IMG/VR virus record: IMGVR_UViG_3300029905_000179
Location: 1 to 6,331 of that record
From: a virus
Strand: one strand, 5' to 3'
Length of the DNA: 6,331 bases
Shown: positions 3,828-6,312 of the stretch, piece after piece
How the letters are laid out: the number at the start of each line of letters is the position of its first letter
How positions within the stretch are numbered: position 1 is the first letter of the stretch
The notes under the pieces: generated by a model
What the model saw: only the letters and a program-made list of their open reading frames with translations
What the model was told of the DNA's origin: nothing
Database searches by the model: none
Program-made: the position numbers and the translations under genes

Positions 3828-5183
3828 TCATAGGTTATATTTGAGGCCTTTGGCGTAGAAATCGTATAGTTTACGCGTCTTCGACGCAGCACGGCGTAAA
3901 GCATCCTGACGAATCCATACCTCAGCGGCAACGAGACTTTCCAAATCCGTTCGGCCAAAGAGGAAGGACGCAACCTCGAATAGACGGTCATGTAAGCGCT
4001 TAGTACACTCATTGACCATATAAGCCTTAAACGTACGCCATATAGGACTCGTGACATCCTTACGCCAAACAAGGCGTTCCTTAAGTTCATTTGTTTTTTT
4101 ATCAACATACTGTACAAAAACTTTTATAGAGGGAAATACTTTATCAATGTAATAACGGGGTATACGGTAACGGAATCCGTTACGAAGTGTAGTAAAACAA
4201 TGAGATAACCACTCACAAAATTTAGGTGTGAGATAATACTTACGTGTATATAAACGGTCATAATGAACATTACCATCATTGTCTCTCCAAGACTTTATCT
4301 CTCGAATCTCTCTATGAGATATCTCTCGTCTGCCATCAGACAAGTCATTCCACTGCTCAATCATTTCAATCAAATCACTCATATAGTTAGAACCGAGTTT
4401 CTTGGAAATAAGACGGAAACACTTCGGAATGACATGATTGACAACATAGGGATTCTCTGCGAAAGAAGGCTTAGAACAATACTTAGCAACGTATGCCATA
4501 GCGTCACCGACACCGTTTTTTTTAAAATACTGAATGGGCCGACCTTTCCACTTAACATTACCATAATTGGACTGCCAATCAGAAATGAAGTATTTAGAAA
4601 AGTCTGCCACATTGAAATTGACGAAGATAACGGCATGATAGTGAGGGCGGAACGTAGAAGGGCCATACTCGCTGCATATAAAATACTTAAACTTAAGACG
4701 TTCACCATCATGGTCATATGCATACTGCTCACGTACACGTTTGAGCCAATTCTGAACATCTTGTTTTGAAACACAGGGAATTGGTATACCGACTTCAATG
4801 TTGTCAGGACACACATACGCTGAATGCTCATCAAGATGCTCACGCAAACGCCTCAAGTGCCTATTCTCTGGCATATTAACAAAATAGTTACGTATATTGT
4901 CCAGGTATTCAGGGTGCTCCGTTTCCTCAACATAATCGGTAAAACCGTCATCATCGTAAACTACACGGGATTCTACGGGAGTTTCAAGTGTAACATACGG
5001 AATATGATTATTGTCATAAGTCATTGTAATAAAATAAGCATACTTCCATTCACGGAATTCCTGCTCAAGACGGAATGTCCAATCATTCTGGTACTTTTGA
5101 ATACATTCAACACACTTACCGCAGGGGAAAGTAACAACTTCTCCTGTACTAAAATGGCGCATTGTGATTGGACTAATACACAT
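3828..5183 (-). CDS. VP4: Rolling-circle replication initiation protein (VP4 / phiX174 gpA-like HUH endonuclease), 451 aa.
   Basis: The N-terminal Cys cluster is FPCGKCVECIQKYQNDWTFRL. RCR motif I is FITMTY (nt 5016-5033). Motif II is the HUH element HYH within RPHYHAVIF (nt 4635-4643). Motif III is YVAKY with two Tyr (nt 4479-4493), the same pentapeptide as the phiX174 gpA active site. The stop is TGA at 3828-3830. Confidence 0.93.
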   Translation of the reverse strand: MCISPITMRHFSTGEVVTFPCGKCVECIQKYQNDWTFRLEQEFREWKYAYFITMTYDNNHIPYVTLETPVESRVVYDDDGFTDYVEETEHPEYLDNIRNYFVNMPENRHLRRLREHLDEHSAYVCPDNIEVGIPIPCVSKQDVQNWLKRVREQYAYDHDGERLKFKYFICSEYGPSTFRPHYHAVIFVNFNVADFSKYFISDWQSNYGNVKWKGRPIQYFKKNGVGDAMAYVAKYCSKPSFAENPYVVNHVIPKCFRLISKKLGSNYMSDLIEMIEQWNDLSDGRREISHREIREIKSWRDNDGNVHYDRLYTRKYYLTPKFCEWLSHCFTTLRNGFRYRIPRYYIDKVFPSIKVFVQYVDKKTNELKERLVWRKDVTSPIWRTFKAYMVNECTKRLHDRLFEVASFLFGRTDLESLVAAEVWIRQDALRRAASKTRKLYDFYAKGLKYNL

Positions 5184-5208
5184 AGGAATTCTTTGTTTTA
5201 CCGCTCTA

Positions 5209-5240
5209 AAAGGAGCACTGCTCCTTTGGCCGCGGGGCCA
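5209..5240 (-). promoter_or_regulatory. Two abutting small hairpins in the rep leader, candidate attenuator or translational control structure.
   Basis: Hairpin 1 is aaaggagc (5209-5216), loop act, gctccttt (5220-5227). Hairpin 2 is tggcc (5227-5231), loop gcgg, ggcca (5236-5240). They lie between the mini-ORF stop (5277) and the rep ATG (5183). Confidence 0.4.
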
Positions 5241-5276
5241 TAACCACGGAAGTTTTTCATGAGTTTAATTTTTATG

Positions 5277-5363
5277 CTAGTGTATGCTCTCAACGCAATT
5301 ACAACAAGGGAAAGTGACAACTTCTCCTGTACTCGAATAGAGCATTCGATTATTGACTCGCAT
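5277..5363 (-). pseudogene. Decayed duplicate of the rep 5' end, a 28-codon mini-ORF (MRVNNRMLYSSTGEVVTFPCCNCVESIH*).
   Basis: On the minus strand, nt 5363-5277 align to the first ~30 codons of rep (5183-5097). AGTACAGGAGAAGTTGT(C/T)ACTTTCCC matches at 25/26. About 43 of 54 positions match over the conserved core by hand alignment. The peptide STGEVVTFPC-x-x-CVE is shared. The third Cys is replaced by Ser and a TAG follows. Confidence 0.55.
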
Positions 5364-5372
5364 GAAGGTCGC

Positions 5373-5499
5373 TTCATTGTCACCTGCTAGGCACAAAGAT
5401 GCTATGCGCTCCACTGGTTGTCAAGGCTATAACAAGCGCTGCGCGGCCTTGACAACGTTACGCGCATGACGCTCAAAGTGCCTATCAGGTGACAATGAA
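5373..5499. other. Imperfect inverted repeat of about 127 nt (cruciform or long hairpin), candidate replication origin or primosome-recognition element.
   Basis: The outer stem pairs 5373-5394 with 5478-5499 (22 positions, 1 mismatch at 5387/5485). The middle stem pairs atgcgc 5404-5409 with gcgcat 5462-5467. The inner stem pairs gttgtcaaggc 5417-5427 with gccttgacaac 5446-5456 (11/11). The 18-nt apical loop contains agcgct and gcgcg. The element is non-coding and lies between the 86-aa ORF and the rep-like mini-ORF. Confidence 0.65.
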
Positions 5500-5517
5500 A
5501 CGCCGTACAAAGAACTA

Positions 5518-5778
5518 CTAATTGGAACGTACGCGCACGTCACGCACACGTGTAACACGCGCGCGCGTCACGCGGTCTAGTTCAACATTTTGGGCGCTAG
5601 GCCTATAATGAATGTACGTAGAATCAACGGACTCTATATAACGCGTGCGCTCATATCCAGCACGGATAGCACTGCACGAATTTGCAGTTGTTAACAAGAA
5701 CGCGCAACATGCGCCCAAAATGAGAACAACTAGACCTTTCCAGCCGTACTTTTTGAGGAAGTCAATAATCTTCTGCAT
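5518..5778 (-). CDS. Small membrane or lipoprotein-like protein, 86 aa, with an Arg-rich periodic C-terminal tail. Function unknown.
   Basis: The N-terminus has basic residues (KK..K) followed by the hydrophobic stretch GLVVLILGACCAFLLTTA and then NSC, which is lipobox-like but non-canonical. The C-terminus is RVTRARVTRVRDVRVRSN. The ATG at 5778 overlaps the preceding ORF by 17 nt. The stop is TAG at 5518-5520. Confidence 0.6.
   Translation of the reverse strand: MQKIIDFLKKYGWKGLVVLILGACCAFLLTTANSCSAIRAGYERTRYIESVDSTYIHYRPSAQNVELDRVTRARVTRVRDVRVRSN
5527..5574. repeat. CpG-dense tract of three consecutive 14-nt alternating purine/pyrimidine blocks, with a 14-nt direct repeat at 28-nt spacing.
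   Basis: The blocks are acgtacgcgcacgt (5527-5540), cacgcacacgtgta (5541-5554) and acacgcgcgcgcgt (5555-5568), followed by cacgcg. The direct repeat gcgcAcgtcacgcA (5533-5546) and gcgcGcgtcacgcG (5561-5574) matches at 12/14. By hand count there are 13 CpG and 38/60 G+C in 5521-5580. The tract overlaps the last ~19 codons of the 86-aa ORF. Confidence 0.75.
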
Positions 5779-5944
5779 AATATGAAAGTTTCGAAGTTAA
5801 TGATTTACAATTGTTAATAACGCCGTCAAGCATATCAATGACGCCATGTATCTGCTGCAAAGTCGCTATATCCAGAGCATCGAACCTCTGGGAGAGGTCG
5901 ATGCTATCTGAATAAAGCTTACATATGGATAAAAATTGATTCAT
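5762..5944 (-). CDS. Hypothetical protein, 60 aa, predicted helical and acidic.
   Basis: Its ATG overlaps the stop of the upstream 123-aa ORF as ATGA (5944-5941). Its TGA stop (5762-5764) lies 17 nt inside the next ORF. This is the packed, coupled arrangement typical of real phage genes. I recognise no motif. Confidence 0.5.
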   Translation of the reverse strand: MNQFLSICKLYSDSIDLSQRFDALDIATLQQIHGVIDMLDGVINNCKSLTSKLSYYAEDY

Positions 5945-6312
5945 TTCTTTTCAATGTTTAAAATGTCCATAATGCATTCAACGGCAGAAATATATCCACG
6001 GAAGTAATCGACAGTATGAGAACGAACAGAAAGCTGCGAAATAATACTCCGACGTTCTTCTGCAATGTCAATCATAGACATTATACGCTCAAATTGAAAA
6101 GGGGAAATCTCCTTATTACGAGGTATCGTATCATCACAAAGACGTTTTGTATAACTTAAAAGAGCTTTACTAAGTTCTTCAACAACTTCAGATATACCAT
6201 AATAGCGATATAAATCGCATTCAGTGCAAACAATAAAACTATCTCTTTTCGTTTTAGAAGGTGATTTAAAATCAGAAATAATCTTCTGAATGTCTTTAAT
6301 AAACTTATCCAT
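5941..6312 (-). CDS. Hypothetical protein, 123 aa, predicted mostly helical.
   Basis: This is the first ORF downstream of the candidate promoter. The ATG is at 6312 (equal to 80 in the wrap-around copy) and the TGA stop at 5941-5943 overlaps the next ATG. I recognise no domain. Confidence 0.6.
   Translation of the reverse strand: MDKFIKDIQKIISDFKSPSKTKRDSFIVCTECDLYRYYGISEVVEELSKALLSYTKRLCDDTIPRNKEISPFQFERIMSMIDIAEERRSIISQLSVRSHTVDYFRGYISAVECIMDILNIEKK

Follow-up and report, generated by a model that had tools for sequence, protein, structure and literature searches.

Hairpin H, a conserved fold upstream of rep in a Bacteroidales-associated microvirus, is a candidate signal for second-strand synthesis and/or rep transcription

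Hairpin H, an imperfect palindrome located upstream of the rep gene of a microvirus, is conserved in sequence and structure, and we regard it as a good but unproven candidate for a signal that starts second-strand synthesis and/or rep transcription. The window, i.e., the whole stretch of 6,331 nt that was analyzed, is a circular microvirus genome of 6232 nt with a 99-nt terminal redundancy. In the reading that we prefer, to which we assign a probability of about 0.35, hairpin H is a single-strand promoter that primes the complementary strand and that, in the duplex form, is the promoter of rep. That RNA polymerase binds, that a primer is made and that the motif acts as a promoter are inferences, and so is any origin or priming role. 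The coordinates of the features are given in Table 1.

Table 1. Features in and around hairpin H; positions refer to the window unless a provirus contig is named.
Feature	Position	Strand	Remarks
Hairpin H, three nested helices and a 3-bp apical stem	5373..5499	-	folding, conservation, covariation
Outer stem, 5′ (left) arm on the coding/viral strand	5478..5499	-	invariant in relatives
Outer stem, 3′ (right) arm on the coding strand	5373..5394	-	transcription start predicted to lie here
Inner 11-bp perfect stem, GTTGTCAAGGC / GCCTTGACAAC, with 18-nt apical region	5417..5456	.	arms 5417-5427 / 5446-5456
Bacteroidetes-type promoter-like motif, TTG-N20-CATCTTTG	5394..5424	-	motif scan, alignment, fold
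CpG-rich hairpin, 17-19 bp, apex GTG-TTA-CAC	5531..5576	-	within the 86-aa ORF, at its 3′ end
86-aa ORF upstream of hairpin H	5518..5778	-	hydrophobic N-terminus; Arg-rich tail encoded by the CpG tract
rep 5′-end remnant, 22 codons (MLYSSTGEVVTFPCCNCVESIH) then stop	5277..5345	-	recombination scar between the H and L modules
L module, alternative conserved rep-upstream element, ∼90 nt	5184..5270	-	alone, replacing the hairpin, in L005, L251 and L273
rep, rolling-circle initiator, PF23343	3828..5183	-	database gene calls begin at the second ATG, 5162
TAACATAATGGCGATTGT repeats at provirus junctions	L002 5594-5616 and 11741-11763; L272 about 3860 and 9768

Genome, host and integration

All genes are encoded on the minus strand; besides rep and the capsid gene (PF02305) there are six ORFs, none of which matches a family. 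Family knowledge from phiX174, which we take to hold here, and the T-richness of the coding strand (32% T), a trait of packaged microvirus strands, together suggest that this should be the packaged strand. The non-coding stretch carrying hairpin H measures 334 nt (5184-5517), while the other two measure ∼112 nt. The original prediction, which had called it the only sizeable non-coding stretch of the genome, is thus roughly right in terms of length; against it stands a 59-aa ORF that gene callers place at 5198-5377 in identical contigs and that spans the recombination scar. The flanks are those originally described, a rep-like duplicate (5268-5346, 75% identical to 5085-5163) on one side and the CpG tract on the other.

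GenBank phage records contain no close relative; the best capsid match among them is 57% identical and belongs to unclassified faecal Microviridae. Membership in the Alpavirinae is not established. The clade is an undescribed one that is associated with Bacteroidales. Two of its members, L002 and L272, are proviruses that share the same insertion point between mgsA/rarA-like and APH-family genes, and in a homology search the flanking phosphofructokinase was 80% identical to proteins from Bacteroidales MAGs. Placed by these two proviruses, the host is a member of the gut Bacteroidales.

The provirus junctions (attL, attR) share the repeat TAACATAATGGCGATTGT, within which ATTTAACATAA is identical to the XerD arm of E. 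coli dif. Integration at dif-like sites has been proposed for Bacteroidetes microviruses (PMC3091885), and the junctions match this proposal. The L002 provirus has a second dif-like motif (6076-6100). A search of the window for the 21-mer repeat gave no match within 3 mismatches. As the relatives of the window phage integrate at a dif-like site, a folded attachment site resembling the XerCD-dependent attP of CTXphi, which is an imperfect ssDNA hairpin of ∼150 nt, was considered for hairpin H. This candidate was rejected. The hairpin arms are not dif-like, and in L002 hairpin H occupies 6355-6497, ∼750 nt inside the provirus and thus away from the junctions.

Several other repeats were seen in the window. 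An identical 15-mer, ATAACTTGACATAAC, is present at 1368-1382 and 1698-1712, where two successive genes begin; these are the 394-aa and 107-aa ORFs, which share the initial MSSY and the bases upstream of it. The end of the 394-aa ORF carries a tandem 19-nt repeat, CAAGTAACA(A/G)AA(A/G)TGTTAC (180-217), next to the AT-rich intergenic region that is the point of opening in related proviruses. A GC-rich hairpin with AAAGG/CCTTT flanks (1773-1810) separates the 99-aa ORF from the 107-aa ORF. Only hairpin H folds more strongly in this genome, and relatives have the GC-rich hairpin at the same position. Its appearance is that of a terminator working in both directions.

Fold, conservation and exchange of hairpin H

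Inverted-repeat search and folding together recovered the three nested stems that had been described over this interval. The outer arms pair over 22 positions with one mismatch, the middle stem (ATGCGC/GCGCAT) sits between the outer and inner stems, and a weaker inverted repeat prolongs the structure to 5363-5509. The minimum free energy as DNA is −39.5 kcal/mol for the plus strand and −39.9 kcal/mol for the minus strand. Dinucleotide-shuffled controls, the comparison by which the original prediction could be judged, gave −17.7 ± 2.4 and −17.5 ± 2.6, respectively (z = −9.0 and −8.5), and none of 200 shuffles folded as well. Hairpin H also ranks first in a scan of the genome with a sliding window of 130 nt (−40.4; genome mean −12.2, sd 4.8), followed by a fold of −32 near 1740-1900. 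It is thus the strongest secondary structure of the genome; the original prediction had called it the largest.

The two strands fold equally well and give no signal of strand asymmetry. In the alignment described below, G.T pairs occupy only 3 of 320 cells. Few G.T pairs and equal energy on both strands are more in keeping with duplex DNA than with structured RNA, and we read hairpin H as a DNA-level duplex structure. It was also considered as an intrinsic terminator, and this was rejected: hairpin H has no T-run, no terminator-like sites were found in 5100-5700, and in relatives hairpin H is followed by an A-run.

For the comparison between genomes we searched for Rep homologs, fetched their contigs and aligned hairpin H from eight distinct genomes (the window, L003, L004, L006, L009, L010, L262 and L272), of which L003 is identical to part of L002. 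In the hairpin-bearing genomes with a recorded Rep match, Rep is 45-100% identical to that of the window. The 86-aa ORF and the CpG tract always precede hairpin H, and rep follows directly in seven of the eight. The copies of hairpin H share 85-94% identity with that of the window, and the corresponding values are lower in rep (62-79%), VP1 (69-80%) and the 86-aa ORF (70-81%). The mean column identity of the hairpin alignment is 89%.

Pairing is kept across the eight genomes. Standard pairs are found in 98.4% of the cells, and five pairs have changed on both sides, a value that none of 500 shuffles matched. Compensatory changes from T-A to C-G occur in the inner stem, and one further position covaries among relatives as T-A, C-G or a mismatch. 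Structures slid by 1-3 columns score much lower than the true pairing, and RNAalifold concurs. The 15 outer-stem pairs never vary, which demonstrates constraint on the sequence and says nothing about pairing. The covariation is supportive, not conclusive, because the sample is small (eight) and its members are related. On the strength of the alignment, the base pairing in hairpin H is selected, and the structural conservation that the original prediction called for is present. In six further contigs of the same virus, which come from other samples, the hairpin region is unchanged at every position, and this rules out that the arrangement arose by misassembly.

A search of GenBank phage records gave no homolog of hairpin H and a sole match, 28 nt of CpG sequence in MG945672.1. 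Searches of IMG/VR with the Rep protein alone or with three exact hairpin or CpG patterns gave no relative; there was one palindrome match, L001, within an 88.7-kb contig. Searching genome and metagenome contigs for GTCAAGGCCGCG-N12-18-GCCTTGAC likewise gave no relative among the matches listed, which include chance matches in high-GC bacteria because this pattern is too GC-rich. Of 69 distant relatives in IMG/VR, only two show an outlier hairpin in the 330 nt that precede rep, and in several the strongest hairpin lies 600-1500 nt upstream of it.

In addition, L005 (Rep 90% identical), L251 and L273 are without hairpin H in the available sequence, which is incomplete for L005 (2.9 kb examined) and L273. 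Close relatives without the hairpin imply that it is dispensable or replaceable. In these three genomes the interval between the CpG tract and rep holds a different, highly conserved element (AAACTCATGAAAAACTTCCGCGG...), the L module, which contains a short conserved ORF start, MKNFRGY. L252 also is without hairpin H and has an L-like sequence inside an ORF. In the window the order is hairpin H, the 22-codon rep remnant, the L module and rep. The presence of both modules along with the remnant identifies the window as a recombinant, and its homology with H-type genomes ends exactly at the base of the hairpin (5377). The distribution of H and L does not follow the Rep tree, from which we conclude that they are exchangeable cassettes. 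The block of 60-aa ORF, 86-aa ORF, CpG tract and hairpin (5377-5950) is ∼84% identical in L004, L006 and L009, the rep and capsid genes of which are only 62-80% identical to those of the window. Either this module evolves slowly or it was exchanged recently.

The CpG hairpin next door consists of alternating CG/TG runs within the part of the 86-aa ORF that encodes the Arg-rich C-terminus, and it was found in relatives with and without hairpin H. In the window and most relatives, 2-5 of its 17-19 pairs are G.T, and it is more stable on the coding strand by 3-9 kcal/mol in 14 of 15 cases, the window copy differing by only 0.9. The same type of CG/TG hairpin is present in 5 of 80 distant microviruses; it was noted in L297, L306, L332, L342 and GenBank MG945672.1. 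We read it as a strand-specific structure acting in viral ssDNA or mRNA, and as a candidate for a universal signal at the ssDNA or RNA level. As it is strand-biased and universal in the clade, it competes with hairpin H for the role of an ssDNA-specific signal.

A promoter-like motif and the readings of hairpin H

Bacteroidetes promoters have the consensus −33 TTTG and −7 TAnnTTTG (PMC7366714). A motif scan confirmed the originally predicted CTTG-N20-CATCTTTG motif (5424→5394, minus strand). Both of its boxes open with C instead of the consensus T. The −33 TTG (5424-5422) lies within the invariant perfect inner stem, while in the −7 box (5401-5394) the A is bulged and the TTT is in a conserved 3×3 internal loop. 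In the form TTG-N20-cAnnTTTG, each box being off at its first base, the motif is found in all eight hairpin-bearing genomes and points at rep. In seven of these its end is separated from the rep ATG by 29-52 nt, after which comes an A-rich leader; in the window itself the distance to rep is 210 nt. The six specified −7 positions are invariant in the alignment of eight sequences and both "n" positions vary, one of them being compensated by its pairing partner. The strand opposite the −7 loop varies as well (TTT, TCT, TCG, TTA) whereas the motif strand does not. Thus, with a Bacteroidales host and a motif recurring at a similar place before rep, the idea of a promoter, originally mentioned as conceivable, has gained comparative support.

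Scanning both strands of the genome with the relaxed motif TTG-N19-21-nAnnTTTG gave exactly two matches, both intergenic, on the coding strand and with N20: the motif in the 3′ arm of hairpin H and the site at 133→103. Since shuffles give ∼1.1 such matches per genome, the count alone is not significant, and relatives also show similar matches inside genes; the comparison between genomes weighs more. The strict −7 box with −33 TTTG at N20 occurs once in the genome, at 133→103 (TTTG-N20-TATCTTTG, minus strand). This is a canonical Bacteroidetes promoter, 17 nt before the ATG of the 123-aa ORF, which is the first small ORF, and it overlaps a weak 29-nt inverted repeat (119-147 / 148-176). It is probably the main promoter of the block of small ORFs. 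A sigma-70 promoter (TTGACA-N16-18-TATAAT) was rejected for hairpin H, in which a TTGACA is present with no −10 box at the right spacing; the only sigma-70-type site in 5100-5700 is at 5582-5609 on the plus strand.

Hairpin H would most naturally be folded when the genome is single-stranded. In the reading that we prefer, it would be a cis element of the packaged, coding-sense strand that rebuilds the duplex of the rep promoter in ssDNA. The three helices would form in the incoming strand, and the single strand does fold as a long, stable, imperfect hairpin. This would present the −33 TTG in perfect duplex and the −7 A and TTT bulged or in an internal loop, like a promoter that is already melted. 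The RNA polymerase of the host, carrying the primary sigma factor of Bacteroidetes, might then bind and copy the 5′ arm (the template arm) and the DNA 5′ of the hairpin, including the CpG hairpin. The motif is found on the 3′ arm of the coding strand, an orientation that would yield RNA complementary to the entering strand, provided that the latter is the coding strand. Such an RNA would prime synthesis of the complementary strand. After conversion to double-stranded DNA the same motif would face rep and act as its promoter. An essential origin function is weakened by the relatives with up to 90% Rep identity and no hairpin, by the rarity of such hairpins (2 of 69 distant relatives) and by the universal CpG hairpin; the strongest argument against it is the combination of close relatives lacking hairpin H and a universal CpG hairpin next to it.

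More tentatively, we propose that hairpin H is a promoter with these two states, the first single-strand promoter for the Microviridae and for a Bacteroidota host, and that H and L are interchangeable cassettes for priming, which phages would swap through recombination inside the beginning of rep.

Alternatively, hairpin H could act in duplex DNA only, as a rep promoter whose activity the palindrome modulates via a cruciform or a bound protein, with no part in priming. In one variant, extrusion in the supercoiled replicative form would hide the promoter. The motif and its position agree with this, the equal stability of the two strands is as expected for a cruciform, and relatives lacking the hairpin apparently manage without a rep-specific promoter motif. 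However, an element of 125 nt built of three nested helices that show compensatory changes does not look like an operator. Moreover, an imperfect palindrome with a GC-rich center would be expected to extrude poorly, and a genome that is regularly single-stranded should fold hairpin H spontaneously. We therefore consider control confined to duplex DNA unlikely.

Another explanation is an RNA structure in read-through mRNA from an upstream promoter, serving RNase III-type processing, stability or translational control, which would separate the message of the small ORFs from rep. Hairpin H is in the sense strand between the stop codon of the 86-aa ORF and rep, and folding as RNA gives minimum free energies between −53 and −64 kcal/mol. 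With its internal loop, the long and imperfect lower stem is reminiscent of the RNase III sites of phages. Against this, pairs of the G.U type are nearly absent from hairpin H, in contrast to the CpG hairpin, and the structure is not terminator-like. Rfam covariance models gave no matches at E ≤ 1 over the whole window. The internal promoter, if real, would also produce a rep mRNA without the hairpin. We find a function in RNA rather improbable.

Hairpin H might instead be a complementary-strand origin for primosome or primase, comparable to the n′/PriA site of phiX174 or the DnaG site of G4, and be recognized as SSB-free duplex DNA, possibly along with the CpG hairpin; the promoter motif would then be coincidental. 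It is the largest stable ssDNA fold and adjoins a second conserved hairpin, and phiX174 and G4 provide the precedent (PMC9865509). No recognizable consensus is known for such sites, and what hairpin H shares with them is only the general property of a stable hairpin in an intergenic region. The absence from close relatives and the pattern of invariance in the −7 box, which this explanation leaves unaccounted for, make such an origin improbable indeed.

We hold it to be very unlikely that hairpin H is a Rep-dependent plus-strand origin or packaging signal, at which Rep would nick the exposed CAACTTTG loop. This loop is invariant and single-stranded in the viral strand, in a cruciform-capable element next to rep, and it resembles the nick context of phiX174, CAACTTG; yet the shared pentamer is short enough to be due to chance. 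Hairpin H does not accompany every cognate Rep (L005, L251, L273), an observation that is not absolute given the two incomplete sequences, and the element common to all genomes is the CpG hairpin. Least probable of all is a palindrome without phage function that spread by recombination, hitch-hiking with the conserved block of small ORFs: presence and absence that ignore the Rep tree, homology that breaks off precisely where the hairpin begins and the unusual conservation of the whole 60-aa/86-aa block suit it, but hairpin H is more conserved than the flanking coding DNA, its pairing is maintained by compensatory substitutions, and its position and orientation are fixed in eight genomes.

Relation to known systems and significance

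We know of no microviruses other than phiX174 and G4 in which the start of the complementary strand is known, and to our knowledge almost nothing is known about cis elements of microviruses in Bacteroidota hosts. In the minus-strand origin of the Ff phages (M13/f1), RNA polymerase recognizes the promoter-like hairpins [B] and [C] and makes a short primer. That origin likewise has two adjacent hairpins, here represented by hairpin H and the CpG hairpin. It differs in virus family, host and sigma factor and is not also a gene promoter. The single-strand origins of rolling-circle plasmids (ssoA, ssoU and others) are structured, RNA-polymerase-dependent and non-essential cassettes that are swapped irrespective of Rep type. 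This swapping parallels the exchange of H for L, whereas the sso plasmids are those of Gram-positive bacteria and have no sequence similarity to hairpin H.

The closest analogy to the reading that we prefer is with the Frpo/ssi elements of conjugative plasmids, in which a long imperfect ssDNA hairpin offers duplex promoter boxes and the transcript primes the complementary strand (PMC7690428, PMC11541004). As in the F plasmid, the non-template elements are on the 3′ arm of the hairpin. In contrast to Frpo, hairpin H measures 125 nt rather than about 328 nt, is unrelated in sequence and would carry Bacteroidetes −33/−7 boxes in place of −35/−10. In addition, the entering strand would here be the sense strand, so that a transcript made on ssDNA could only be a primer and not an mRNA.

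Within the Microviridae, the n′ (PriA) site of phiX174 and the primase origin of G4 are conserved intergenic hairpins of the viral strand that start the complementary strand (PMC9865509). They are located in the F-G region and depend on PriA or DnaG, whereas hairpin H lies before rep, is larger and has a promoter motif. Conserved hairpins before Rep have been described in reekeekeeviruses, where they are 64 nt long and directly upstream, and in roodoodooviruses; they show compensatory substitutions and were tentatively linked to initiation of the complementary strand, a role that "cannot be certified" (PMC9865509). Hairpin H resembles these in kind. Compared with the reekeekeevirus hairpins, for which no promoter motif was reported, it is twice the size, apparently unrelated in sequence and from another clade. 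What is new in detail is that a promoter motif lies within the hairpin and that the H and L cassettes are exchanged.

Hairpin H offers a precise, conserved and mutable target: its three helices contain covarying pairs, and its bulged A and TTT loop match the −7 box of the host. Nature provides the controls in the form of relatives without it and one genome with both modules. Should the reading with two states fail, hairpin H would remain a regulatory element of rep whose structure is well supported. If that reading is true, single-strand promoters, described for plasmids and filamentous phages, would also exist in icosahedral ssDNA phages and with a promoter grammar other than that of sigma-70.
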